A stretch of DNA of 64,000 nucleotides from an uncultured Chlamydiae bacterium (GCA_963713615.1 CAVQMM010000001.1:1824001-1888000), one strand, 5' to 3'. Shown: positions 5,425 through 64,000, counted from the first letter of the stretch. Numbers and translations: made by a program. The notes: generated by a model from the letters alone, not told the origin.

Positions 5425-5690
<266 letters not shown>

Positions 5691-5738
5691 TTGATCATCG
5701 GACATCTCGAACGAATTCTGCAATCCAAGCAACCCGCT

Positions 5739-11389: not shown

Positions 11390-12304
11390 ATGATTCTACG
11401 CATACTCGTCATAGCTCTGACATTTGCGATCCACCTATCTGCATCGCCGGAAGATGGACTATTTGACAATTCTATCTTTGAGCCCCAAAAAGACATGCAG
11501 TTTACGAGTGATGCTGAACTGACTGCAAACTCGTTTTTTATCCCCAAAGAAGGCATGCATCTTGCGAACGCCCCCCCCGTTGGGATCGCCCCCCAAGCAT
11601 GCGGTGGATGTAATAGTTGCCGCGAGACACCTTCTGCCGCTGCCCTCCTTCAGTCTATACAAACAGTCCTTAATAGCGACCTATTGCTACTGCCACAGCT
11701 CGAAACTCAACTGATTAACGTTGTACAAACAATAGTGACAGAAGGTGGAATAGGGGTTCCAGGCATTCCAGGGCCTACGGGACCAACTGGAGCTACTGGA
11801 GCTACCGGTCCTGCAGGACCTACTGGCGCGACGGGGGCTACCGGTCCTGCAGGCCCTGCAGGCGGGGCATTGGATTTTGCGGATTTTTACGCCTTAATGC
11901 CTCCAAACAACGCCTCCACAGTTGCAGCTGGCTCGGATGTTCAGTTTCCAGAAGACGGACCATCGAGTGGGTCTGGTTTGATTGCTCGCACCGGTGCTAG
12001 CACCTTTAACCTTGCTGACATTGGTGTCTATCAGGTCATGTTTCAGGTTAGTGTGGACGAAGCCGGGCAATTGGTATTGACTCTCGATTCGGGAGGAGGA
12101 CCCATTGAGCTAGCCTACACAGTGGTGGGTCGAGCGACAGGTACATCCCAACTGGTCGGAATAGCTATTGTGCAAACGAGTGTCATTAATTCGATACTCA
12201 CAGTCCGTAATCCTGCTTCGGAGAGTACAGCATTAACGATAACTCCCCTAGCAGGGGGAACAGACCCCGTTTCGGCGCACCTCACCATCATACGGATTCA
12301 ATAG
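11390..12304 (+). CDS. Secreted collagen-like protein with BclA-type C-terminal domain
   Basis: Signal peptide; G-X-Y run GPTGPTGATGATGPAGPTGATGATGPAGPA; FADFYALMP...GVYQVMFQVSV...ILTVRNP C-terminal beta domain. Confidence 0.7.
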   Translation: MILRILVIALTFAIHLSASPEDGLFDNSIFEPQKDMQFTSDAELTANSFFIPKEGMHLANAPPVGIAPQACGGCNSCRETPSAAALLQSIQTVLNSDLLLLPQLETQLINVVQTIVTEGGIGVPGIPGPTGPTGATGATGPAGPTGATGATGPAGPAGGALDFADFYALMPPNNASTVAAGSDVQFPEDGPSSGSGLIARTGASTFNLADIGVYQVMFQVSVDEAGQLVLTLDSGGGPIELAYTVVGRATGTSQLVGIAIVQTSVINSILTVRNPASESTALTITPLAGGTDPVSAHLTIIRIQ

Positions 12305-13260: not shown

Positions 13261-13519
13261 AAGCCCTCACAAGCGTTACTCGGCGCGCAGCGCTTTGGAG
13301 TGCGTGTCGCTCGCGACCGCTTTGGATTTGGGTGAACTAGGCATTGCAAGAAACGTAACCCTTCTCTCTAGGGGTAACTGTGGGGGGGGGGGCAGCCTCC
13401 GTAGAACGGTGCGCGATTCAATAGACTCGCCCAAATCCAAAGCGGTCGCGAGCGACACGCACTCCAAAGCGCTGCGCGCCGAGATACGATTGTGAGTCGA
13501 GAAAAAGATGTGTGCAACC
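13261..13519. repeat. REP-doublet element copy 2 (spacer type A, G11), plus partial outer arm
   Basis: Inverted arms as in copy 1; tail TCGAGAAAAAGATGTGTGCAAC matches the outer arm at 17350 and 59773. Confidence 0.9.
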
Positions 13520-24362: not shown

Positions 24363-26644
24363 ATGTTCCGCAAATTTCGAAAACGCTTCCTGCATTCTTT
24401 ATCTGGAGTCAGCTTTTCTCTTTGCTATCGGAAATCCCTTGTTCTCTGTCACAATTCCCGTCACCAGCACCGACAGTTTTTACGGAACCCCCGGTACTCT
24501 AGGTGCAGCTCTTTACTCGGCTGAAGATGGCGACGTCATCGACTGCTCGCCCATTGCAGGGCAGATGATCAGCTTTACAGGCAACCCCCTACCAGCGATT
24601 GGAATCAATTTCACTTCGCCCACTTCTTCTCTCACCATTCTAGGAAGTGGAGTGATCATCGACGGGGGAAGCGCTGTCACAGTTTTCTCCTTAGCACTAG
24701 GCTCGGCCACGATTACTGATTTCACGATTCAAAATGGTCTCTCGAAAGGTGGCAGTGGAGGTTTTGGCATTACTGGCGGTGGCGGTGGAACTGGCGGTGG
24801 CGGCGCACTTTACATACACTCAGGCACTACCATGACCATCTCTGCCATAAGTCTCAATAACAACCAAGCTATCGGTGGCAATGGCGGCGCTGGTAATTCC
24901 TCTGGCGGCTCGGGTGCTGGAGGCGGTGGTTACGGTGGTGGGAGCTGGGGGCTTCGCAGCTGCAACGGGTTCTAGTGCTGGCTCTGGCGGTGGCGGTGGC
25001 GGCAATAGCGGTGGGACCACTGGCGGTAGGGACGGGGGGGCTGGATCACCCAATACCTTCTCAAACTTCGGCGGCGCTGGCGGCGGTGGGGAGCGACCCA
25101 CACCACCTTCGGGTGCGAGAGCCGGAGGGAGCAGTGCCGCTAGTCTTTCTAGTCCTGCCCACAGCGGTGGAGCTGGAGGCATAAGCACTGCCAATAATGG
25201 TGCAGGGGGTGGTGGTGGCGCTGGCTCAGGTGGGAGCGGCAGCGCTGGTTCTGATGCACGATCCTCCATCGCAGGAGGTGGCATAGGTGGTGCTGGAGGC
25301 ATTGGCTTTGGCGCAGACAATACTTATGGTGCTGGTGGGGGTGGCGGCGGCGGCAATGGCGGCGGTGCAGGCTATGGCACAAGTGGTGGGGGCGGTGGAT
25401 TGACTGGACCTGGAGGTGCCGGAGGTGCTTTAGGCGGCGGTGGCGGGGCCTCTGGCAATACGGCTACGCTATGGGCGGGGCTGGCGGCTTCGGTGCGGGC
25501 GGGGGTGCAGGCCACGTCGGTGGCTCTGATATGTATGGCCTTGGTGGAGCTGGCGGCTCGGGGGCAGGCGCACCAGCAGGCGGGGGAGGAGGTTCTGGGC
25601 TTGGGGGAGCCATCTTCATTCATGGAGGAGGCCTTCTCATCGTTGAAGACGGCGTCAGTTTTTCTGGCAACTCGACGACTGCTGGGACTGGCGGCACGGC
25701 AGCGGCAGGTGGTACTCCTGGAGGCAATGGATCTTCCCTTGGGGAAGATATTTTTATCCGGTCGGGAGGCAGTGTAACCTTCCAGATCAACAGCTCATTG
25801 ACCATTCCCAATCCGATCGGGGGAGGTGGATTGTTATCTGAAGTCACCGGACCCGGAGTGACTTTGTCGGGCACAGGGATTGTCAACCTGAGTGGAGCAA
25901 ATACCTATCTAGGCGAAACTCTCATCCAATCGGGAAACCTGAATCTGAATGGGTCTGTCCTCGGAGATTTGAATATCGCAATCGAGCGGCACACTATCAG
26001 GCAATGCCACAGTTAATGGTTCCATCTATAATAGCGGAACGATCTCGCCAGGCAATTCCATTGGCGAAGTTTTCACTACGGATCTCTACTTATATTCTAC
26101 GAGCCTCTATAACGTCGAAGTCGATTCCACGAGCTGTAGCTTGATCGATGCGACAGGAACCGCCACATTGGGAGGAGTCCTTGAAGTCACACAAGATCCG
26201 GGTGCCTATGGTTCGTCTGGTCAATATACTATTTTGCAAACAACAGGCGGCATCAATGGTGCATTTGATTCTATTGTGATTCACAGCTTGCCTGGCTATC
26301 AATTTCAGTTGGAAAATAACGGCTACACGCTTTCTCTCATTTATGAGTTCGTTCTATTACCTCCGACGAACTTACAAGGCAAAAGAATAAAAAATGTGTT
26401 TCTTAATCAAACCGACATTGTGAATGTACTACAGTGGGGTCCACCCATTGGCGGGGTTGTGCCTGTTGCTTACAAAATTTATCGAACCAATCTAAATACA
26501 TTGATCGGTATTGTGGGAGCCGGTGGAGCATTATATTTTGAGGATCACATTCGATCGAAGAATGTCACCTATACTTATTATATCGTATCTGTTGATGCTC
26601 AAAATAACAATTCACTTTCTGCAAGCATTACAATTACTCCATAA
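24363..26644 (+). pseudogene. Glycine-rich secreted protein with autotransporter-associated beta-strand repeat and C-terminal FN3-like domain; four frameshifts
   Basis: Signal-like start MFRKFRKRFL; frame switches near 24415, 24940, 25470, 25980; LSGANTYLGETLIQSGNL repeat; PPTNLQG...YKIYR...YTYYIVSVD. Confidence 0.7.
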
Positions 26645-26751
26645 CATTCCTCACTAACCTCTCAAGTCACCTGGGTAAACCGCATACTCTAGCAATCTAT
26701 CAATCTTTCCTTGATGTCAATAGCTTCAACCAGTAACTTATTGCCAAAAAA

Positions 26752-26795
26752 AATGGACTGATTGGACGAATTGGACTGATTGGACGAAATGGACA
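26752..26795. repeat. Left arm: five 9-bp units A(A/T)TGGAC(TG/GA)
   Basis: AATGGACTG ATTGGACGA ATTGGACTG ATTGGACGA AATGGACA; contains the ATG at 26789. Confidence 0.9.
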
Positions 26796-27364
26796 GCTCA
26801 AACGAATTATTAATTCCCAAGCATGGAGGCTATCGAAAACTCAAGACTTTTCAACTCGCGCGATTAATTTTTGACATAACAATTCGATTCTGCAATCGGT
26901 TCGTAGGAGTAAAAAGCCGTACACACGATCAGATGGTCCAAGCAGCTCGTTCCGGCGTTCAGAACATAGCTGAGGGCAGTCAGGCATCTGGTACGTCGAA
27001 AAAAACTGAGCTAAAATTAACTAATGTGGCTCGTGCAAGCCTTGAAGAGTTACGATTGGACTATCAAGACTTTTTGCGACAGCAGCAATTGCCTTCGTGG
27101 GATCACCCAGATCCCCGTGGACAAGAACTTGTTAAACAGCGGTTGGAAACCGCGGATGAATTTGCCCTTTGGACAAAGCATCTTCATGAACTGCAGCAAG
27201 GGCACCTTGCGGAAATTGCAGCTAATGGTGTCTTAGTATTACTGTCGGTAACCTGTGCACTTTTGGATCGGCAAATCGCTGCACAAGCAGCAGCTTTTCA
27301 ACGCGATGGAGGCTTCACAGAACGCCTTTATCGCACACGAACAGCCTTGCGCAACAAATCTTAG
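26789..27364 (+). CDS. Four-helix-bundle protein with suffix domain (TIGR02436/TIGR04258-like)
   Basis: HGGYRKL, RTHDQMVQAARSGVQNIAEG, VARASLEELRLDY, LLDRQI, GGFTERLY. Confidence 0.88.
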   Translation: MDSSNELLIPKHGGYRKLKTFQLARLIFDITIRFCNRFVGVKSRTHDQMVQAARSGVQNIAEGSQASGTSKKTELKLTNVARASLEELRLDYQDFLRQQQLPSWDHPDPRGQELVKQRLETADEFALWTKHLHELQQGHLAEIAANGVLVLLSVTCALLDRQIAAQAAAFQRDGGFTERLYRTRTALRNKS

Positions 27365-27414
27365 TCCATTTCGTCCAATCAGTCCAATTCGTCCAATTAG
27401 TCCAATTAGTCCAC
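27362..27414. repeat. Right arm: six inverted 9-bp units
   Basis: TAGTCCATT TCGTCCAAT CAGTCCAAT TCGTCCAAT TAGTCCAAT TAGTCCAC; first unit contains the TAG stop. Confidence 0.9.
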
Positions 27415-30625: not shown

Positions 30626-30760
30626 CTATCCGCCTCTAGGAGTATCAGGTGTCTCAGGTGTGGCATTCTTGTCAGGAGTCGCTGGCGTAGTATTTGGGTT
30701 ATGGCAAGCAGCTAACACTAGCGCTAGACATGGTAAAAGCAGCAAAAATTTGAACTTCAT
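30626..30760 (-). CDS. 44-aa lipoprotein MKFKFLLLLPCLALVLAACHNPNTTPATPDKNATPETPDTPRGG
   Basis: GAGGTG RBS; n/h regions with LAAC lipobox; missed by ORF track (<60 aa). Confidence 0.7.
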   Translation of the reverse strand: MKFKFLLLLPCLALVLAACHNPNTTPATPDKNATPETPDTPRGG

Positions 30761-30892
30761 GACACCACCTCGTGGTTAGGTTTAGCAATGGAAACTCTAC
30801 CTAATCCGGATACTAGCACCACCCTCTAATATGCTGCTAGTAGCATGTTATGTACTTAAATGCCTATGTGTTGCGCTACGCGAGGCGGAGAG

Positions 30893-31095
30893 GGAGGGGG
30901 AAGTGGAGGGGGAAGTGGAGGGGGAAGTGGAGGGGGAAGCGGAGGGGGAAGCGGAGGGGGGGAGGGGGGAGGGGGGGAAAGAGGCGGCTATGAGGGGGGT
31001 ATACGAATTAAGGAGAGGATTAGGAATTAGGAATTTTTACCACAGAGAGCGCAGAGACGCCGAGATAGGAGAGAGAGGAAAGGAAGGAAAGGGTT
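30893..31095. repeat. Left arm of GxxExxY cassette: 5 x GGAGGGGGAAG(T/C) plus IR core
   Basis: Core TAGGAATTAGGAATTTTTACCACAGAGAGCGCAGAGACGCCGAGATAGGAGAGAGAGG (31021-31078). Confidence 0.9.
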
Positions 31096-31143
31096 GATTT
31101 TTTCTTTAAATCGAGTTTAAATTTTGAAAAAAAATTAAAGAGT

Positions 31144-31536
31144 ATGGCTGTGGATAGTTCTTCAGAAGATGTTATCACCGGAAAGATTATTGGCGCTGCC
31201 ATTGAGGTACATCGTCATTTGGGCCCGGGCTTGCTCGAATCTTCATATAAAGCATGTTTAATATCCGAGCTGACCCAGCTCCAACTAAAAATCGAGCAGG
31301 AAAAGGCCCTTCCAATATGCTACAAGGGACTCAACCTTGCTTCCGGCTACAAATTGGATCTTTTGGTTGAAGAACAGGTCATCGTTGAGCTCAAAGCAGT
31401 CAGCGAAATAGCCGCTATCCACAAGGCACAGTTATTGACCTATCTGAAGCTGGCCGGATGCCGAGTTGGCTTACTAATCAACTTTAACGCTCTTGTTCTT
31501 AAGGACGGTATATGCCGTCTAGTCAACTTCTATTGA
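31144..31536 (+). CDS. GxxExxY protein (PD-(D/E)XK nuclease superfamily)
   Basis: EVHRHLGPGLLESSY, LDLLVE, IVELKAV, AQLLTYLK, GLLINF. Confidence 0.93.
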   Translation: MAVDSSSEDVITGKIIGAAIEVHRHLGPGLLESSYKACLISELTQLQLKIEQEKALPICYKGLNLASGYKLDLLVEEQVIVELKAVSEIAAIHKAQLLTYLKLAGCRVGLLINFNALVLKDGICRLVNFY

Positions 31537-31542
31537 GATAGA

Positions 31543-31712
31543 CCCCTCTTCCTATTCCCTCTCTCTTCCTATTCCCTCTCTCTTTCCTATCTCGGCGTCT
31601 CTGCGCTCTCTGTGGTAAAATCCTAATTCCTATATCCCTGATCATCCTTAATCTTCACACTCCCCGCCCCTCTCCCATCCCTCTCCCATCCCTCTCCCAT
31701 CCCTCTCCCCCC
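31543..31712. repeat. Right arm of GxxExxY cassette: inverted IR core plus (CCCTCTCCCAT)n
   Basis: CCTATCTCGGCGTCTCTGCGCTCTCTGTGGTAAAATCCTAATTCCTA (ends 31632); 11-bp pyrimidine repeats 31668-31710. Confidence 0.9.
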
Positions 31713-31777
31713 TATAGACTTAAAGCGTCCAATATCATAAACTTACTCTTCCATAATCATCTTTCATAAGCGTTGGT

Positions 31778-34700
31778 ATGAGCATGTTTGAAGAACAACA
31801 AAATGAAACTTTTCCATCTCGCGAAGAACGTATCTTGCAGTTCTGGCACGAGAACCGTATTTTCGAGCGTTCGATAGAACAAAGGGCCGATAAGTCTCTA
31901 TTTTCTTTTTATGATGGTCCACCCTTTGCTACGGGTTTACCGCACTATGGGCACTTTTTAGCCGGTACCATTAAGGATGTTGTCCCTCGCTATAAAACAA
32001 TGAAGGGTTTTTGTGTTCCTCGTCGCTTTGGATGGGACTGCCACGGCCTTCCCATTGAAAGTGAGATTGAAAAGAAGTTCAGCCTATCCGGTGCCGATTC
32101 TATCGAAAAATTTGGTGTCGCCAACTTTAACGAAGAATGCCGTGCCATCGTGCTACGCTATACGGCGGAATGGAAGACAGCTGTTGAGAGAATGGGACGA
32201 TGGGTCGACTTTGGCAATGTGTACAGAACGATGGATCCCACCTTCATGGAATCGGTATGGTGGGCTTTCAAGCAGCTGTATGAAAAAGGTCTGGTTTACG
32301 AAGGCTATAAGGTGATGCCCTTTTCGGCAAAGCTAGGAACACCTTTATCCAATTTCGAAGCAGGAGAAAATTACAAAGAGGTCGACGATCCTGCTATTAC
32401 AATCGCCTTTCAGTTGCTTGATGATTCGTCCACATACCTACTGGCTTGGACCACAACGCCATGGACATTGCCGTCAAATTTGGCTCTTTTGGTTGCTCCT
32501 GAGCTCGATTATGTTAAAATTCACGACAAAAAAGAAGACAAGAACTATATCCTAGGCCGTAATCGGTTGACGATTTACTATCCAGACCCATCGACCTATA
32601 CCGAATTGGAATCCTATACAGGTAAGGATCTATTCGACCTGCATTACCGCCCGCTTTTTGACTATTTTGCAGATCGAGGAAATCAAGGAGCCTTTAGAGT
32701 GATCGCTGAGGCCTCCGTGTCTGCTGAAGAGGGTACTGGGATCCTCCATGGAGCCCCAGCTTTCGGTGAGGTAGACTTCTATGCATGCCGCGCTGCAGGA
32801 ATTGATCTGGTCTGCCCCGTGGATAGCAACGGACGCTTCACTGCTGAGATACCGGAGTACCAGGGATTATTTGTCAAAGATGCAGACAAAGACATTATCA
32901 AGCGCTTAAAAGCAGCAGGCAGCTTAGTACGCCAAGAGTCTATTCGCCACCGGTATCCTTTTTGTCCTCGGTCGGACACGCCCTTGATCTACAAGGCAGT
33001 GAGCAGTTGGTTTGTGGCTGTCGAGAAAATAAAAGGCCGCATGGTAGAGCTCAATGAGCAGATTCACTGGACGCCCGAACATATCAAACACAAACGCTTT
33101 GGCAATTGGTTGGCGGGTGCCCGTGATTGGGCAATCAGTCGCAACCGCTACTGGGGCACACCTATCCCTCTATGGAGGGCTGACGATGGCGAAATCCTTG
33201 TCATCGGCAGTGTCGCTGAGTTGCAGGAGTACTCTGGAGTCCAGGCGACAGATCTTCATCGCCATTTCATCGATGATATCGTTATTCAAAAGGATGGAAA
33301 AACTTTCCGACGCGTCTTCGAAGTCTTCGACTGCTGGTTTGAGTCGGGTTCCATGCCCTATGCGCAAAATCACTATCCTTTTGAAAACCGCGAACGCTTC
33401 CTAAATGCCTTTCCAGCGGATTTCATCGCTGAAGGCCTGGATCAGACACGAGCCTGGTTCTATACTCTGATGGTATTGTCAACCATACTTTTCGACAAAC
33501 CTGCATTCAAGAATGTGATTGTGAATGGAATCATCTTAGCTGCCGATGGTGCTAAGATGTCTAAACGGCTTCGCAACTATCCTGATCCCGCACTGGTCAT
33601 TGGTAAATATGGAGCGGATGCTATCCGCCTTTATATGCTTCACAGCCCTGCTGTAAAGGCCCAAGACCTTTCTTTTTCCGAGAAAGGTGTTGAACATGTA
33701 TTGCGAGTGATCCTGATCCCTTGGTGGAATGCCTATAGCTTCTTTATGACCTATTCTCGTCTGTATGAATGGCGTCCGCCTGCACAGGAGATCAAGGTCG
33801 AGAAGGAAATTGACCGCTGGATGCTCTCAGTGCTCAATAAGCTAGTCCATGAGATCGAGCTAGGCATGGATGATTATGATCTTAGTCGAGCCGTAGAGCC
33901 TTTGGTGGGTTTCATCGACCAGCTAACTAATTGGTACATCAGGCGCTCCAGACGTCGTTTTTGGAGCGACGAGGCATCCCCAGACCGTGATCAAGCCTTC
34001 GCCACGCTGTATCAAGTGTTATTAGTTTTAAGTAAATTAGCGGCTCCTTTTGTGCCTTTCATCAGCGATGCTATCTATCGCAACCTTCGGGATCCCAACA
34101 CTCCCGAGTCGGTACATCTGTGCGACTATCCTATCTACCATGCAGATACGCGTGATGTAGCACTAGAAGTGGCCATGGAGGCGGTGCAAAAGAGCGTCAG
34201 TTTAGGCCATGCCCTGCGCAAAGAGCGTAGCCTAAAGGTTCGCCAACCATTGCCCGCGGCTCATGTGGCATGTAGTGATCCGGCTATCTTAACGGCTTTG
34301 CAATCGCATGCACAGCTGATTGCCGATGAGCTCAACGTAAAAGATGTTCTTTTTAGCCAGGATGAAGAGCAATTTGTCAGGCTGAAGGCCAAGCCTAACT
34401 TCCGTGTCTTAGGCAAGAAGGTCGGCCCCCTTATGCCTGCCGCTAAAGAAGCTATTGCTAAATTTAACCGGCAACAGCTTACGCATCTTCTAGAGGGACG
34501 AAACGTCCCGCTAGAATTGAACGGAACCACCATCGACATCACTCCAGAAGACGTTGAAGTGGAACGCGAGGTGCGTGAAGGTCGTGTTGCAGCTAACGAT
34601 GGGGTCATCACCATAGCCCTAGATACCACGCTAAATGACGAACTGATCATGGAAGGACTGGCTCGCGAGATCGTCAATAAGGTAAATACGATGCGACGAG

Positions 34701-34903
34701 AAGCGGGATTGGCTGTTAGCGATCGCATTTCGTTGAAAGTCGATAGCACAGCCTCCGTCGTGAAGTGTTTTGAAGTTCATGGCAACTTCATTCAAGGCGA
34801 GGTTTTAGCGGTGGATGTCGTATTCGACAAATGCGAAGGTACCGTCTGGGATCTCAATGGAGAAGCAGCCACCATAGCATTGACTAAGGTGACAACAAAA
34901 TGA
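31778..34903 (+). CDS. ileS: Isoleucine-tRNA ligase (type 2)
   Basis: DGPPFATGLPHYGH, GWDCHGLP, WTTTPWTLP, KMSKR. Confidence 0.98.
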   Translation: MSMFEEQQNETFPSREERILQFWHENRIFERSIEQRADKSLFSFYDGPPFATGLPHYGHFLAGTIKDVVPRYKTMKGFCVPRRFGWDCHGLPIESEIEKKFSLSGADSIEKFGVANFNEECRAIVLRYTAEWKTAVERMGRWVDFGNVYRTMDPTFMESVWWAFKQLYEKGLVYEGYKVMPFSAKLGTPLSNFEAGENYKEVDDPAITIAFQLLDDSSTYLLAWTTTPWTLPSNLALLVAPELDYVKIHDKKEDKNYILGRNRLTIYYPDPSTYTELESYTGKDLFDLHYRPLFDYFADRGNQGAFRVIAEASVSAEEGTGILHGAPAFGEVDFYACRAAGIDLVCPVDSNGRFTAEIPEYQGLFVKDADKDIIKRLKAAGSLVRQESIRHRYPFCPRSDTPLIYKAVSSWFVAVEKIKGRMVELNEQIHWTPEHIKHKRFGNWLAGARDWAISRNRYWGTPIPLWRADDGEILVIGSVAELQEYSGVQATDLHRHFIDDIVIQKDGKTFRRVFEVFDCWFESGSMPYAQNHYPFENRERFLNAFPADFIAEGLDQTRAWFYTLMVLSTILFDKPAFKNVIVNGIILAADGAKMSKRLRNYPDPALVIGKYGADAIRLYMLHSPAVKAQDLSFSEKGVEHVLRVILIPWWNAYSFFMTYSRLYEWRPPAQEIKVEKEIDRWMLSVLNKLVHEIELGMDDYDLSRAVEPLVGFIDQLTNWYIRRSRRRFWSDEASPDRDQAFATLYQVLLVLSKLAAPFVPFISDAIYRNLRDPNTPESVHLCDYPIYHADTRDVALEVAMEAVQKSVSLGHALRKERSLKVRQPLPAAHVACSDPAILTALQSHAQLIADELNVKDVLFSQDEEQFVRLKAKPNFRVLGKKVGPLMPAAKEAIAKFNRQQLTHLLEGRNVPLELNGTTIDITPEDVEVEREVREGRVAANDGVITIALDTTLNDELIMEGLAREIVNKVNTMRREAGLAVSDRISLKVDSTASVVKCFEVHGNFIQGEVLAVDVVFDKCEGTVWDLNGEAATIALTKVTTK

Positions 34904-35562
34904 CGTTAGGCGGTTTCCATGGTGCAATTTTCGATATGGATGGTGTTCTGATAGACACCCTGGCTATTCATGAGCGCAGCTGGTTTGCTGTAGGAAAAGA
35001 ACGAGGGCTCTACATAGACCACGACCTGTTTCAGCAAGGCAATGGCCTCACCAGTGTCGCACACGCCACACGCGTTTTAAAATGGACATCATCCCTAGAA
35101 GAAGCACAAGAAATTGCTAACGCCAAAGAAGCTGCTTATGTCCAATTTATTAGCAAAGAAGGAGTAGCGCCTATACCTGGTGTGATTGCATTTCTGTCAA
35201 GGCTGCGTGAGCTAGGAATTCCGTGTGCCGTAGGCACATCGGCTCCACGCAGCAATTTGGACCGTGCTCTTAAGGCTACCGGATTAGAGGGCTTCTTTAG
35301 CGCTTTTATTACCTCGGAAAATGTTAAAGAGGGTAAGCCAGATCCCGAAGTTTTCTTGAAAGCAGCTCAAGAGCTCCAGATACCACCAATCCAATGTGTT
35401 GTATTCGAGGATGCCGCTAATGGTGTGACGGCGGCAAAAAGAGCAGGAATGGGCGTGATTGCTCTAACGACAACGCATCCCCGTGACGAACTACTAGGCG
35501 CTGATCTTATTGTAGATGGCTTTGCAGAACTAGATCCGCAGGTGTTATTCAAAGGACTTTAA
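34900..35562 (+). CDS. HAD-superfamily phosphatase (beta-PGM-like)
   Basis: FDMDGVL, GKPDPEVF, FEDA. Confidence 0.9.
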   Translation: MTLGGFHGAIFDMDGVLIDTLAIHERSWFAVGKERGLYIDHDLFQQGNGLTSVAHATRVLKWTSSLEEAQEIANAKEAAYVQFISKEGVAPIPGVIAFLSRLRELGIPCAVGTSAPRSNLDRALKATGLEGFFSAFITSENVKEGKPDPEVFLKAAQELQIPPIQCVVFEDAANGVTAAKRAGMGVIALTTTHPRDELLGADLIVDGFAELDPQVLFKGL

Positions 35563-35796
35563 CAATCGTGTCTCGGCGCGCAGCGCTTTGGAGTGCGCGT
35601 CGCTCGCGACCGCTTTGGATTTGGGCGAAGTTGGCATTGCAAGAAACGTAACCCTTCTCTCTAGGGGTAACTGTGGGGGGGGGGGCAGCCTCCGTAGAAC
35701 GGTGCGCGATTCAATAGGCTCGCCCAAATCCAAAGCGGTCGCGAGCGACACGCACTCCAAAGCGCTGCGCGCCGAGGCACGATTGTGAGGGCTTTT
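35562..35796. repeat. REP-doublet element copy 4 (spacer type A, G11), between convergent genes
   Basis: Near-identical to 13261-13496; reverse orientation relative to 5425-5690. Confidence 0.9.
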
Positions 35797-35801
35797 ACCT
35801 C

Positions 35802-37781
35802 TTAGCGCCCTTTCTTGTGGGGATAAAGATATGCTTGAAGTCTTAGCGCTAGAGGAGCTAGGCTACTTTTAGCCTGCGTAAAATCTGCCCTTTGAAATAT
35901 TCTACGACGCGATCGTAACCAGTAAATTCCATAGCTTCCTGCAGCAATCAACCAAAAGAATCCCCATACGAAAACGCGTGGCAGCGTAGCCCATGGCACG
36001 GCAGGCTGCTGAGGAGCTCCCCAACGCTGTCCAGGTGGCCACAGAATATAGCTAGGAGCCCCCAGAAGATTTTTTTCAGGCACAAAACCAAAATAGCGAC
36101 TATCCACACTGCGAGCGTGGTTGTCACCCAAAACCAGATATTGCCCCTCGGGAACGTGGAGACCAAAGCTACGCACAAAACGTCTGTCAAGGCGCCCATC
36201 ATGAACTGGCGCCCCTCTATCTAAAAATGCAACATAAGGTCGCCTACGCGATGACATCCGCTGACGTTCCAGTTCATGTTGCACGTAATACTGCATCGTA
36301 GGCTCATCTTTGAGGATGATGGGTGCTCCGAGAACATACAGATCACCATCACGGAAGTAAGCATAGCGCGAAGGAAAATCGACTTGGTTTGCTTTAGTAG
36401 GTGCAAAATCGGCATCGAATTCGATTCCCAGATTGAATAGACGCTGAATATTACTGCTAACCTTGCGGTAGAGGGGATGTGCCCGATCCAGCTCGCTAAG
36501 GGAGCCGGACCAGTCAACGCTATACGCTTTACCATTATAATACTCATAGACGCCATTAGGAACCTTGGTAAACATAGGACTCCCGGGACCCAATGAGCCT
36601 CCTGCAATGCCATAGAGACCCGCTCGCCCATCTTGTACGATAAAGCGACTGGTATAGATGTTATCCATCAAACGCACGAGATGCTTATCCTGCAATGGAA
36701 TGACAGTAACGTGTGGAGAAAGAAGGAGACGAATGCGTCCATCAGGACCTTCTTGAAAACGAGGCTTAGGCGAAGTCAAACTTGGCGAGTGGCGCAGCTC
36801 GAGGTACAGAGGAGCCTCTTCCAACGTATTCGGCTCTATATCGGCAAGCTGGCGTACCTGGTCCTTAGTAAGGATGCGAGCCATCGCATAATTTCGCATT
36901 CCCCAGAAATCTGTATAGGTTTCAATGCCATCATGCTGAATACGCTGTGCTAAGGGGTTATCTTCAATCCATTCTCCCTGGTCATTGACATCACCTTCCA
37001 AAACACCATATCCTGCGAGAGTAAGCCGGCCAATTGGCTTGCCCATCTGATTCAGAAAGATCTGATGAACGAGGTTACTGCCCTCCGCTGTCGATGTGGT
37101 GATACGTCCCTCGAATCCACTAAATGGTACATACTCCAATTGCTGCATCCATGGTGTCTCAAAATCCCCAGAAATATCGCGTCCATCTTTATCGAAACCA
37201 AAAACCTTACCCCCATAGAAATACAAGGTATCACCAGGCTTTCCGATGACACGTTTAATGTATCGTGAGGAGGAATCGGGTAGATCTAAACCATCCCCAG
37301 ACCAGACAATCACCCCCGTTCGCATGACTAGCTTGGGATCAAAATAGAGGTGCTTAGTCTGGAACGGCCAGTTCAGACCAAAGGCTGTCTTGGTCAAAAG
37401 AAAATGGTCTCCCTCTCGAAACGTGGGACGCATCGATCCCGTGGGAATCTGATATAGCTCCAGCCACGACTGACGCATAACAAGGACAGCTAGGGCAAGG
37501 ATGGCAATACCCAAGAGGGTCTTGGTGGCGGTTATCCATACCGAGCGCCGCAAAACCTGCGGAAAATGTTCCTTAAGGTAACTAACGAGATGATGAGCTT
37601 CTGCCCTTTGTGCTTGGTCGATGGCTGCTTCGAGGTTCTCAAGACAGTCCTCCAGGTCGTTTAACTGCTCAGGCGAAAGGGTGTGCCCATGACGACGATA
37701 CCATGCGCTAGCGCGGCGCAGATAGCGACGCGATAACCCGATACGAAGGGGTCTAGACAGTGTCGACGAATTAAACTCCAT
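35802..37781 (-). CDS. lepB: Signal peptidase I, long chlamydial type
   Basis: IPTGSMRPT (Ser), YIKRVIG (Lys), GDNHARSVDSR; start uncertain (37781 or 37820). Confidence 0.9.
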   Translation of the reverse strand: MEFNSSTLSRPLRIGLSRRYLRRASAWYRRHGHTLSPEQLNDLEDCLENLEAAIDQAQRAEAHHLVSYLKEHFPQVLRRSVWITATKTLLGIAILALAVLVMRQSWLELYQIPTGSMRPTFREGDHFLLTKTAFGLNWPFQTKHLYFDPKLVMRTGVIVWSGDGLDLPDSSSRYIKRVIGKPGDTLYFYGGKVFGFDKDGRDISGDFETPWMQQLEYVPFSGFEGRITTSTAEGSNLVHQIFLNQMGKPIGRLTLAGYGVLEGDVNDQGEWIEDNPLAQRIQHDGIETYTDFWGMRNYAMARILTKDQVRQLADIEPNTLEEAPLYLELRHSPSLTSPKPRFQEGPDGRIRLLLSPHVTVIPLQDKHLVRLMDNIYTSRFIVQDGRAGLYGIAGGSLGPGSPMFTKVPNGVYEYYNGKAYSVDWSGSLSELDRAHPLYRKVSSNIQRLFNLGIEFDADFAPTKANQVDFPSRYAYFRDGDLYVLGAPIILKDEPTMQYYVQHELERQRMSSRRRPYVAFLDRGAPVHDGRLDRRFVRSFGLHVPEGQYLVLGDNHARSVDSRYFGFVPEKNLLGAPSYILWPPGQRWGAPQQPAVPWATLPRVFVWGFFWLIAAGSYGIYWLRSRRRIFQRADFTQAKSSLAPLALRLQAYLYPHKKGR

Positions 37782-37838
37782 AGATTTGCGTAAAGTATCT
37801 CGTCTGGCACGAAAATTCAAGAGATATATAGCGTCGTG

Positions 37839-38879
37839 TCATCCAGCAGGCTCAAACCGTATGGGATCGGATGTCTCTGCACCTGAATTGGGATGCTTCC
37901 AGGATTGTATTGCAAAGCGGTATGCCTTTCCAGGTGTCAATTTATCGGCTAGCACTCTTCCTGGGACTTCGAAAAACAACGTGTCATTTTCTTCTGTTGG
38001 ACGGACTGAAAAGGGTAAGGGCGTTATTTTTTTCTCGGCACCAGCTTCAATAGCTACAAGGGTAAAATCGGAATAATAGGGTCTGGTCTTTAGCCAAAGA
38101 TGCAAATTGCCCCGCTCAAACCGTCCGTTGTTCGTGAAGGCTAAGGGCCTGCGAGGCATAGGAGGTGCAGGAGATCGAAGAGCAGTTCCAGAGTCGATAA
38201 TACGCATTTTGGCTTTACCAACTACCCCACTGACCTGCATCCAATAGGGGAAATAGGAAGGGTACCTTCCCTCCTCCGTTGGCAAATAGATCTCTAACTG
38301 CTTACCGGCCAATTCACCACCATCATTAGGCCAATAGGTTCGCCAAGCTCTAAAAGAGGCATGGGGAACTGTCTGACCATCGACAACTAAACTTGGCTGC
38401 CATACCCCACGACGGTCTGCATGTCCATCATTTGGAGCTCGGCCGATGCGGCGGCGTGATTGCTCAGGCATTAGGGTCAATGGCAGGTTAACGAGAGTCC
38501 CCAGAAAGCTATCTGCGCTGGGAAGATCACACCAGCTGTTCTTGGTATAGGAAAAGGTCTCTAGAAGACGGCCACTCTGGGGTTCCAGTTCATAGGCTAC
38601 CCAGCCGGTATGCCCTGGGGCTCCCTGCATCACCCAGTCACGCCAAGAAGGCATATCAGGTGGAAAACGCCCCTCTGGAACAGTGATCTCTTGAATGAGA
38701 ATGGTCTGCGGAGTCTTATCGGCAATCAGAAGAAGAGTGTAGGTGCGATTCTGCCCCGTCACGATGAAGTCGCCAACATTAGCACGAGAAAGGTTGTCCC
38801 TGAGAAAAATCTGCTCACCGCTAAGACCAAAAACCGCGATTGTGAGTACCGAAATGAATAGGTTCCGTATGAGCTTCAT
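37839..38879 (-). CDS. Chlamydial conserved secreted protein (CT021-like)
   Basis: Signal peptide; GDFIV, YFPYW, IIDSG; position upstream of lepB. Confidence 0.65.
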   Translation of the reverse strand: MKLIRNLFISVLTIAVFGLSGEQIFLRDNLSRANVGDFIVTGQNRTYTLLLIADKTPQTILIQEITVPEGRFPPDMPSWRDWVMQGAPGHTGWVAYELEPQSGRLLETFSYTKNSWCDLPSADSFLGTLVNLPLTLMPEQSRRRIGRAPNDGHADRRGVWQPSLVVDGQTVPHASFRAWRTYWPNDGGELAGKQLEIYLPTEEGRYPSYFPYWMQVSGVVGKAKMRIIDSGTALRSPAPPMPRRPLAFTNNGRFERGNLHLWLKTRPYYSDFTLVAIEAGAEKKITPLPFSVRPTEENDTLFFEVPGRVLADKLTPGKAYRFAIQSWKHPNSGAETSDPIRFEPAG

Positions 38880-38950
38880 AGCTTCCTCCCTCAAGGTGTG
38901 CAATCCAAGAGTTTAGGTCTTTGAGGTTTATGGTGCCAGCCTTTTGTGAT

Positions 38951-39093
38951 GGGGAGAGGGGGAGAGAGGGGAAGGGAGGGGGAAGGAGGAGGATTAGGAA
39001 TAGGATTAGGAATTTTTACCACAGAGGACACAGAGACGCCGAGGTAGGAGAGAGAGGAGAGGAAAGAGGAATTTTTTGTCTTTTATTGAGTTA
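38951..39093. repeat. Left arm of second IR cassette: purine tract plus IR core
   Basis: AGGATTAGGAATTTTTACCACAGAGGACACAGAGACGCCGAGGTAGGAGAGAGAGGAGAGG... Confidence 0.9.
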
Positions 39094-39175
39094 AAGCCTG
39101 TAACCTCTTAATACCTCCTTAACTGATTGGCGGTATAGTATCGGTTAAATCGAACAGACAGAAGAGGGAGAGAAG

Positions 39176-39808
39176 ATGAACGTTATACAAAGTTGTTATA
39201 GATCCGTTTGTGACGCAGTAGTTCCAGAATCATTGAAGCCCAAATTTGGCATGGTTTCAGAGGCAGAAATCTCAGAAATTGCATACAAAGTTGCTCAACT
39301 AGATTCTTGGAAGACCCTAACAACAACAGTTAGCGTTGGATTGCTACCAAGCTGCGTCCCAAGTCCCTTCAATATTCTCAAGCCAGAGGAATTGACAAGC
39401 TTACCTGCACTGTTTAATCTGCGCCACCCCGTCGAAATTATCTTCTTTCCCCTGGCAATTGCAATGTTAACCCTAATGTCTGCCATCTTTGTACCTGTAT
39501 TGGCAATAAGTGGAACGATTAATGGCATGAATTTAGGTGAGAATCTTTCCGGAAAACTTCTTTGTGGCATTGCCTCAACCATTTGGGCTGTTGCTGCCGC
39601 AGGGGTCTTTGGAGCTGTGCTTTCCATCAGTCCAGGAAGTATGATAGTCATAACCTTAACCCTGTTTGTAGCATCGCGTGTTTTGAAACATATGCGAAAC
39701 AACGAGATCGCGAGCATTACAGAGCGAAATGGAGGCCGCGTACCCACTGCTGTGGTACAAGCCTGCCCAGACGCCATCCAATGGAATTCCTTGTACAAGA
39801 CGGCCTAA
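39176..39808 (+). CDS. Orphan membrane protein, Inc-like hydrophobic profile
   Basis: GGAG upstream; no signal peptide; central TM plus about 40-aa bilobed hydrophobic stretch. Confidence 0.6.
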   Translation: MNVIQSCYRSVCDAVVPESLKPKFGMVSEAEISEIAYKVAQLDSWKTLTTTVSVGLLPSCVPSPFNILKPEELTSLPALFNLRHPVEIIFFPLAIAMLTLMSAIFVPVLAISGTINGMNLGENLSGKLLCGIASTIWAVAAAGVFGAVLSISPGSMIVITLTLFVASRVLKHMRNNEIASITERNGGRVPTAVVQACPDAIQWNSLYKTA

Positions 39809-39824
39809 TCGCTACCTGGGTTTT

Positions 39825-39920
39825 AATGTCCATTTTGTCCATTAATGTCCATTTTCCATTAAGAACCAATGGACTATGGACAAAATGGACTTTATGGACA
39901 TTAATGGACCATATGGACAC
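39825..39920. repeat. Gene-less hairpin of GTCCAT/ATGGAC units
   Basis: AATGTCCATTTTGTCCATTAATGTCCATT...AATGGACTATGGACAAAATGGAC... Confidence 0.85.
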
Positions 39921-40088
39921 TAATTAAATAAAAAACAAAAAAATCCTATTTCTTCTCTCCTCTCTCTCCTAACTCGGCGTCTCTGTGTCCTCTGTGGTAA
40001 AATTCCTAATCCTCTTTTCCTCTCCCACTCCCCTCCCTTCCCTTCTCCCACTCCCCTCCCTTCCCTTCTCCCACTCCGCATCCTCCGC
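39921..40088. repeat. Right arm of second IR cassette: inverted core plus pyrimidine tract
   Basis: ...CCTAACTCGGCGTCTCTGTGTCCTCTGTGGTAAAATTCCTAATCCT (ends 40013) then CT-rich tandem duplication. Confidence 0.9.
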
Positions 40089-55421: not shown

Positions 55422-55665
55422 ATAAAACCCTCACAATCGTGTCTCGGCGCGAAGCGCTTTGGAGTGCGGTCGCTCGCGACCGCTTTGGATTTGGACGAAC
55501 TAGACACTTTACAAACTTTGACTTATCCCTTCTGCATGTATATTGAGGGCTGTACTAACTGCACAAACCTCACGCAGGGCTAGAGGCTTGCCCAAATCCA
55601 AAGCGGTCACGAGCGACACGCACTCCAAAGCGCTGCGCACCGAGATATGATTGTGAGGGCTTTAT
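55422..55665. repeat. REP-doublet element copy 5 (spacer type C)
   Basis: Same arms with an unrelated spacer of about 90 bp; outer flanks resemble those of copy 1. Confidence 0.88.
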
Positions 55666-55709
55666 AGCCATCCGACATCTCAAAAGATTTCTGCAACTAC
55701 CTCAGCTGG

Positions 55710-63799: not shown

Positions 63800-64000
63800 T
63801 GTAGCGCATTGTGAAGGTTATTGTAACGCATTGTGAAGCTTTTTTACCACAGAGTCCATAGTTAAGCACGGCGTAAGCAGGGCGAATAACCCATCCAAAA
63901 GTAACGGATATGCAGGATCGCTTCGCGGCATGATATGCAGGATCACTCCCATCTTCTTCAGAGTCATAGGGTTAACTTTATCTTAAAAAACTAATGGGAT

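Follow-up and report, generated by a model that had tools for sequence, protein, structure and literature searches.

Paired Inverted Arms Around a GxxExxY Gene Belong to a Chromosome-Wide Repeat Family in an Uncultured Chlamydiae Bacterium

Two Arm-Framed Loci

The window described here is a 64,000-nucleotide (nt) stretch from the chromosome of an uncultured Chlamydiae bacterium (GCA_963713615.1, CAVQMM010000001.1:1824001-1888000); coordinates are positions in this window unless prefixed C1, which denotes the chromosome contig of this genome (G000). Two single genes in the window are each bracketed by inward-facing inverted repeats, here called arms: a GxxExxY gene encoding a predicted nuclease (cassette 1) and an orphan gene encoding a hydrophobic protein (cassette 2). 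A sequence-only reading of the window had described both loci as outer tail, core, open reading frame (ORF), inverted core and outer tail, and these coordinates hold (Table 1). The same reading treated the arms as a feature of two cassettes; the arms are real and do not arise by chance, but those in the window are four of 257 copies genome-wide. The cassette 1 cores at 31035-31077 and 31578-31620 are 98% complementary, and their 19-nt core is found in 4/257 arms; the cassette 2 arms (38948-39084 and 39932-40068, 137 nt each) are 71% complementary, and their core, present in 20/257 arms, is the second commonest.

Table 1. Features of the two arm-framed loci (window coordinates; aa, amino acids)
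Feature	Position	Strand	Remarks
Candidate direct repeat, left copy, 7-10 nt	30851..30860	+	Edge of cassette 1 insertion; single case, may be chance
Purine-rich outer tail, 12-nt tandem units	30884..30983	+	Left end of cassette 1 (G-rich)
Left arm, cassette 1 (word 'A', anchor 31039)	31012..31088	+	Alone non-palindromic
GxxExxY gene, 130 aa	31144..31536	+	PF13366, TIGR04256; PD-(D/E)XK fold, predicted catalytic residues intact
Right arm, cassette 1 (anchor 31616)	31545..31640	-	Complementary core
Outer tail of right arm, C-rich on +, 11-nt tandem units	31653..31713	-	
Candidate direct repeat, right copy	31715..31724	+	Within conserved ileS upstream sequence
Purine-rich outer tail, cassette 2	38948..39004	+	
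Left arm, cassette 2 (anchor 39018), AT-rich inner flank	39005..39093	+	
Orphan gene, 210 aa	39176..39808	+	Hydrophobic residues 84-118, 127-167; one of three paralogues in genome
Nested TGGAC-family hairpin	39823..39923	.	Between ORF and right arm; same family frames the genome's four-helix-bundle genes
Right arm, cassette 2 (anchor 39998), AT-rich inner flank	39921..40021	-	
Outer tail, cassette 2, C-rich on +, 23-nt tandem units	40014..40088	-	

A Dispersed Family of Paired Arms

An arm profile built from 94 seeds and applied at E<=0.01 finds the 257 copies in the genome and 0 in the reversed genome. The premise that arms are paired and not randomly placed is borne out: 184/257 lie in 92 inward-facing pairs, and adjacent arms no more than 1500 nt apart comprise 88 inward, 7 tandem and 1 outward arrangement. 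The pair span is at most 400 nt in 72/92 and exceeds 400 nt in 20/92; at the gene-sized spacing of 401-1500 nt there are 16 inward pairs and 1 outward pair. Long ORFs are avoided, with 235/257 arms outside them and 22/257 inside ORFs of at least 150 aa, compared to an ORF coverage of 80%. A single arm is a tandem word which folds at only -2 kcal/mol and is non-palindromic. Purine-rich outer tails accompany 81/257 arms (4/5000 random windows) and differ between loci; the outer flanks are unique in 181/257 arms and common to another arm in 76/257. Pairs lie at divergent gene junctions in 27/69 cases with no bias toward convergent ends; the divergent-junction bias, at p=0.013 against gaps of at least 50 nt and p=0.12 against gaps of at least 200 nt, is not relied on.

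The genome holds two clear GxxExxY loci by tblastn, each gene with its own dispersed word. The second gene has a different word with 138 arms; those no more than 1500 nt apart form 50 inward pairs and no outward pair. At this locus (C1:1921556-1922648, L002; gene at about C1:1921706-1922140) the arms are amplified as tandem units with an 87-nt period downstream. The window itself also carries a partial A arm near its end (63841-63861) and a solo second-word arm near its start (~1993).

The two arms of each cassette had been said to match each other better than those of the other cassette; over a 58-nt window this is clear for cassette 2 (2L-2R 56/58, with 0/256 other arms higher) and narrow for cassette 1, where 1L-1R scores 53, 1L-2L 52 and 1L-2R 51, and 23/256 other arms outscore the partner against 1L. 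Partners co-vary across the chromosome: an identical 19-nt core is shared in 22/92 pairs (3.1 when shuffled; 3/91 between neighbouring pairs), private 12-mers are common to partners in 23/137 cases (0.8 expected), and partner similarity within subfamilies is 36.5 vs 27.8, with 0/5000 permutations as high (84 pairs; 4 shorter than 110 nt and any strata with fewer than 3 pairs were left out). The second word family co-varies as well (50 pairs: 40.7 vs 37.0).

The GxxExxY Protein

The protein scores above the curated cut-offs over the whole model for both PF13366 (141.9 vs 22 bits; E-value 1.4e-41) and TIGR04256 (148.2 vs 35 bits; E-value 1.1e-43), and residues E32, D72, E82, K84 and Y100 are invariant across 111 aligned GxxExxY sequences. 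A structure model from the single sequence is unusable (predicted local distance difference test, pLDDT, 33.9); the alignment-based model used instead has a pLDDT of 93.5 and features a PD-(D/E)XK fold. Its nearest folds are Cas4 and restriction-like nucleases, the best match being Cas4 SSO0001 (4ic1; Z 7.9, root-mean-square deviation (rmsd) 3.4, 100 aligned) and a further match Pcal_0546 (4r5q; Z 6.5, rmsd 3.4, 106 aligned), with a structural Z under 8 not equating to family membership; a Foldseek search with the model returned nothing at E<=0.001. Likeness to Cas4/RecB-like nucleases extends to weak Cas4 profile matches and an E, D, ExK, QxxxY pattern whose catalytic roles are assumed here; in contrast, the GxxExxY protein has 130 aa, a Fe-S (iron-sulfur) cysteine cluster is not evident in the alignment, and there is no CRISPR context. 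The modelled core fold and the active-site residues place the protein in the PD-(D/E)XK superfamily, with nuclease activity predicted. The sequence-only reading had assigned it to this fold with no assigned function, which agrees with the model, the invariant residues and the accessible part of PMC3424549, where PF13366 is listed in the superfamily with function 'Unknown'; in the accessible text of 10.1101/2021.01.26.428298 GxxExxY is named beside Cas4.

The family is very large (7999/7999 scored candidates are homologues). The ratio of nonsynonymous to synonymous substitution rates of the relatives' genes is 0.06-0.09 in five unsaturated pairs, five further pairs being saturated. The gene occurs in 8/72,556 plasmid records, and a viral scan with two peptide patterns gave no confirmed relative, though absence is not proven.

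Association of Gene and Repeat Across Genomes

An inverted flanking repeat accompanies 47/62 intact GxxExxY genes from Chlamydiae and other phyla, compared to 38/620 control stretches (the 62 being 68 intact loci minus 6 with short flanks; second copies L023 and L025 were dropped). Word labels cluster on the protein tree, from which 13/81 loci that were partial or contained stops were left out; the labels require 32 changes vs 41.8 when shuffled, with 0/200 shuffles as low, and a 13-row chlamydial clade (support 100/98) contains most B-word rows. Among 40 relatives the A word is present in 15/20 genomes with the gene and 3/20 without it, kin not being independent. The nuclease-repeat link is therefore strong.

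The gene does not hold its position. GxxExxY copies of the relatives G001, G002 and G003 lie at junctions other than lipoprotein-ileS, the site of cassette 1; at junctions which hold the gene in family-level relatives, a subset picked after the data were seen, gene-less arms are found here at 4/6 loci by the automatic table and 5/6 by hand, with the same word at both G003 shared-junction cases (21/48 loci in the table are untestable). The gene thus changes address over time and leaves arms behind.

Ends and Empty Sites

In the window the two loci have as neighbours ileS, a CT021 gene and a gene for a macrodomain protein; CT021 and the relatives retrieved suggest an environmental member of the Chlamydiae. 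The sequence-only reading looked to the two orthologous junctions for empty sites, and the expectation stands for one of them. The lipoprotein gene stands next to ileS in both G001 and G002, with neither gene nor arm between; the intergenic DNA of G001, a congener, aligns with window 30637-30860 (score 84 vs a shuffle maximum of 36) and resumes at 31715, and because both alignment ends fall on the same 10 nt of G001, cassette 1 is read as an insertion of 854 nt, possibly accompanied by a duplication of 7-10 nt. In G003 this junction is occupied by two other genes (208 and 436 aa; L050:13189-15122), a putative AbiE-type pair. The second junction is a variable site and not a clean empty one: the orphan is missing from G001, G002 and G003, but so is the macrodomain gene outside the arms, and the neighbour there is different in each of them.

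[quoted passage not shown] One pair of the ACCGCC subfamily (C1:1224338-1224760), inside another repeat, has perfect 12-nt direct repeat flanks, which none of the subfamily's seven further two-ended copies shows. Public sequencing runs yielded scattered short contigs which bridge neither cassette; a single joint spanning cassette 2 (39035-39981, 27 nt side) probably derives from another gene-less pair.

Contents of the Pairs

The spacers of the 92 pairs are repeat mosaics, with a CTAAGG-type hairpin in 39, TGGAC repeats in 17 and two RAYT-type repeats in 11 and 10; 29/92 are without any listed repeat. A table of enclosed genes, as the sequence-only reading proposed, does recover the GxxExxY and orphan genes, but most pairs are gene-less: the 88 inward pairs within 1500 nt contain one GxxExxY gene, one orphan and one group II intron protein fragment, the rest being repeats or short spacers. 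Among the 20 pairs over 400 nt, the real-looking genes are the same three, an IS66-like element and those in three loose pairs of 2.3-3.8 kb which may not be true partners; the remaining ORFs are read-throughs of repeats. The labels of the intron fragment (C1:1197435-1198330) and of the IS66-like element (C1:3362053-3364652) are our assumptions. The 50 second-word pairs enclose no orphan, and the single further ORF among them looks spurious; tblastn finds no GxxExxY gene remnants in the spacers of A pairs here.

Other repeats of this genome have genes of their own. TGGAC arrays (44-nt, inverted) frame a four-helix-bundle gene at 26780-27364 (TIGR02436, TIGR04258; region 26751-27407) and a second copy at C1:3217600; there are 114 arrays genome-wide, 17 of them nested in A pairs, and gene and arrays form a parallel gene-plus-repeat partnership. 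GGAGTGCG doublets, which resemble repetitive extragenic palindromes (REPs), lie at 5427-5705, 13261-13518, 35554-35811 and 55425-55679, with 367 arms genome-wide; a Y1 transposase gene (C1:3256519) lies inside one of these pairs. Other features of the window are an apparently split, possibly frameshifted, glycine-rich gene spread over several frames (24439-26644) and a collagen-like coding repeat with a 9-nt period (11762-11851).

The Orphan Gene of Cassette 2

The orphan protein has zero matches in Pfam, NCBIfam, PHROG and PADLOC. Its two paralogues, 36-43% identical, lie in tandem at C1:2956268-2957863, with no arms found within 3 kb. No relatives were found in the 40 related genomes, and a comparison with proteins of near length gave only the orphan itself; a search of 1.84 billion sequences returned the orphan, a match of 200 aa, as long as one paralogue, and a fragment of 93 aa, while two lengthy repetitive proteins in that search were taken as noise. 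The hydrophobic stretches were detected by a simple window. In being lineage-specific, about 200 aa long and having a long, apparently two-part hydrophobic region, the orphan resembles chlamydial inclusion membrane (Inc) proteins; it differs from them in having no family match, and an Atlas score of 0.75 against the IncV cluster is a lead at best. Judged from the protein sequence, the likeness is a resemblance only and Inc identity is putative. A promoter and terminator scan of cassette 2 gave chance-level results only. Another hydrophobic gene of no obvious family (257 aa, C1:1255912-1256685) lies among A arms elsewhere.

Cassette 2 itself belongs to the TGGAC composites; stretches of 70-80 nt at its left and 172 nt at its right have counterparts in composites that contain no gene, and at C1:1287891 both halves abut without a gene. 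The orphan is displaced from the middle of the cassette, with the left stem on one side and the nested TGGAC hairpin on the other.

Proposed Mechanism

It is hypothesized, with a probability of roughly 0.5, that the arms form a chromosome-wide repeat family whose word is recognised by the GxxExxY nuclease, which would seed or maintain the copies, and that the orphan gene is a one-off insertion. The GxxExxY protein would nick or cut at or near its word; as a hydrolytic PD-(D/E)XK enzyme it would not itself rejoin DNA, and therefore host repair synthesis would copy either the partner arm, by fold-back, or another copy. Such copying would leave arms that match each other and tails made ragged by slippage, and would not duplicate the target. 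The pairs tolerate insertions, as other repeats, an intron and an insertion sequence (IS) nest in them, and some pairs themselves ride in MITEs or IS ends; the orphan gene probably inserted into a ready-made composite pair. In one filled/empty comparison the host hairpin's loop is duplicated, inverted, in both arms, which fits one arm having been copied from the other. A broader proposal is put forward tentatively: GxxExxY proteins could be word-specific nucleases which drive a distinct class of dispersed repeats by nick-and-copy, each clade reading another 7-9 letter word; as the proteins would bring no transposase chemistry themselves, host repair would build self-matched pairs at new sites, the gene would relocate between such sites, and neighbouring or incoming genes, this orphan for one, would sometimes be trapped.

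Alternative Explanations

The arms may instead do no more than frame the GxxExxY gene or regulate it, perhaps through an RNA or DNA stem, without being moved by the nuclease; gene-less pairs would be decayed cassettes carried along by ordinary transposons, their match kept by host template switching. This is a possible but doubtful explanation. Several observations weigh against the nuclease-driven interpretation, and those on carriage by transposons, on shared flanks and on co-variation also speak for passive framing. In G012 (L163-L182) pairs are carried by a MITE of 200-210 nt whose ends read GGCGTTG and whose target duplications are 8-9 nt long (8 nt in 16/17 scorable elements of 20 fetched); the same MITE end, presumably IS1595-like, lies beside the GxxExxY genes of that genome. 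In G017 (L055-L068) a GxxExxY cassette is fused to a transposase 3' end, which we take to be IS5, in at least 11 copies, along with dozens of half-gene derivatives, some in tandem arrays, and a tandemly arrayed B-word cassette on C5; autonomous transposition is an improbable source of the 67 matches in G017, since the full copies share the upstream transposase 3' end. In G023 (L143-L162) outward-facing doublets about 40 nt apart, which resemble the right-end/left-end junction of a cassette, lie in a larger multicopy element; target duplications were unreadable at the 20 stretches inspected (of about 45 sites), which fall inside a larger repeat whose ends were not found. In this genome a MITE, a hairpin first read as a GTAG REP, has 8-nt duplications in 9/11 copies and contains A arms in 5/11; the genome's ISL3 copies share its first five letters but differ from it at the ends. 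Other transposases have therefore spread part of the arm family, and 76/257 arms share outer flanks with another arm.

The adverse points extend to the matching of arms and to the comparison of genomes. The sequence-only reading took the arms to be homogenised per cassette; partners do co-vary genome-wide, but the RAYT-type doublets of this genome also co-vary (146 pairs: 57.5 vs 50.0), so that co-variation is not cassette-specific and not diagnostic of a cassette. Homogenisation of arms by template switching or recombination, with no dedicated enzyme, is already described in the accessible part of PMC5941160. The 'empty' hairpin of the filled/empty comparison could stem from deletion. The word tree is imperfect, word A taking 13 changes over 20 rows and 18/68 rows being unlabelled, and the 129 alignment columns resolve little in the protein tree; the A word stands without a detected gene in the three genomes noted above. 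The family-level junctions were chosen post hoc, and across the whole order shared junctions number 6/35 ends vs about 9% (p=0.08, not significant).

Passive framing fits less well with the 181/257 arms whose outer flanks are unique, with the lack of target duplication at symmetric ends, with spacers free of gene remnants, and with two independent word families, each of which reaches 50-90 pairs beside a single cognate gene of its own.

A further alternative is that of the sequence-only reading, in which an autonomous GxxExxY cassette and non-autonomous cargo cassettes move as units between arms, the orphan being cargo and possibly an effector. The orphan does lie wholly between well-matched arms and was found in none of the 40 relatives, inward pairs of gene size do exist, an empty site and a possible 7-10 nt duplication are seen for cassette 1, and two looser 2.3 kb pairs also span genes of no obvious family. 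Against this, there is one orphan in 88 close pairs and none in 50 second-word pairs, and the 148 close RAYT-type pairs enclose one cognate Y1 gene; the orphan's paralogues have no arms, the orphan is off-centre, the flanking macrodomain gene is missing from the relatives as well, a second copy of any cargo cassette was not found, the pairs have no defined ends, and the GxxExxY gene is rare on plasmids and was not found in the viral scan. The system of autonomous and non-autonomous cassettes is consequently not upheld, and the cargo reading is weak and improbable; a cargo effector would be of greater consequence, but it is not borne out by the present data. Least probable is that the arms are REP or terminal inverted repeats (TIRs) mobilised in trans by the genome's Y1 (RAYT/TIRYT) transposases, with GxxExxY having landed in a pair, as the six Y1 genes, although some have their own dispersed doublets and RAYT-type repeats do nest in A pairs, include none within 4 kb of any A arm (the nearest is ~4 kb away), and GxxExxY arms occur in many phyla with clade-matched words.

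Comparison With Known Repeat Systems

The nuclease-driven interpretation has its closest parallels in systems served by Y1 enzymes. REPtrons and REPINs (RAYT, TnpA-REP), as presented in the accessible text of PMC3116915, PMC6006769 and PMC3333891, agree with the present family in that one gene, under purifying selection, serves each kind of repeat and lies between copies of it, and in having hundreds of extragenic inverted doublets with variable linkers, which outnumber singlets and occur as several families per genome. In those accounts the REPtron enzyme is HUH-Y1, whereas here it is a PD-(D/E)XK protein of PF13366; the REP is a hairpin with a GTAG foot, whereas the arm is a non-palindromic tandem word with no such foot; and the REPtron locus is stable, whereas the gene position here differs between congeners and the arms are not biased to convergent gene ends. 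The TIRtron, in which a TIRYT gene lies within long inverted repeats and TIR dimers are dispersed (Di Nocera 2013, PMC3733652, accessible part), is the closest architecture, as its inverted repeats need not be palindromic; TIRYT is a tyrosine transposase with a HUH motif, unlike PF13366.

MITEs of DDE insertion sequences are likewise non-coding, with inverted ends and many copies, and some pairs travel inside them; the pairs themselves differ in having neither fixed termini nor general target duplication. As to recent multicopy spread of an autonomous element by its own ends, the gene has one copy per word here, and in the multicopy case, G017, a transposase 3' end lies upstream of 11 full copies. 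On this comparison the family is best read as one that may work like a REPtron or TIRtron and is a member of neither. A literature search, with most subscription papers and supplements outside it, found no description of a GxxExxY gene with its repeats.

Significance

The tie between clade and word gives the GxxExxY family, whose function is unknown, a substrate candidate, and this near-complete genome offers a clean test pair of two genes and two words. It also displays how the intergenic space of an intracellular bacterium fills with nested repeat mosaics. If the proposed mechanism is true, a 130-residue enzyme would carry a natural specificity code, and GxxExxY proteins would be a second enzyme class, beside the Y1 transposases, which populates chromosomes with REP-like doublets.

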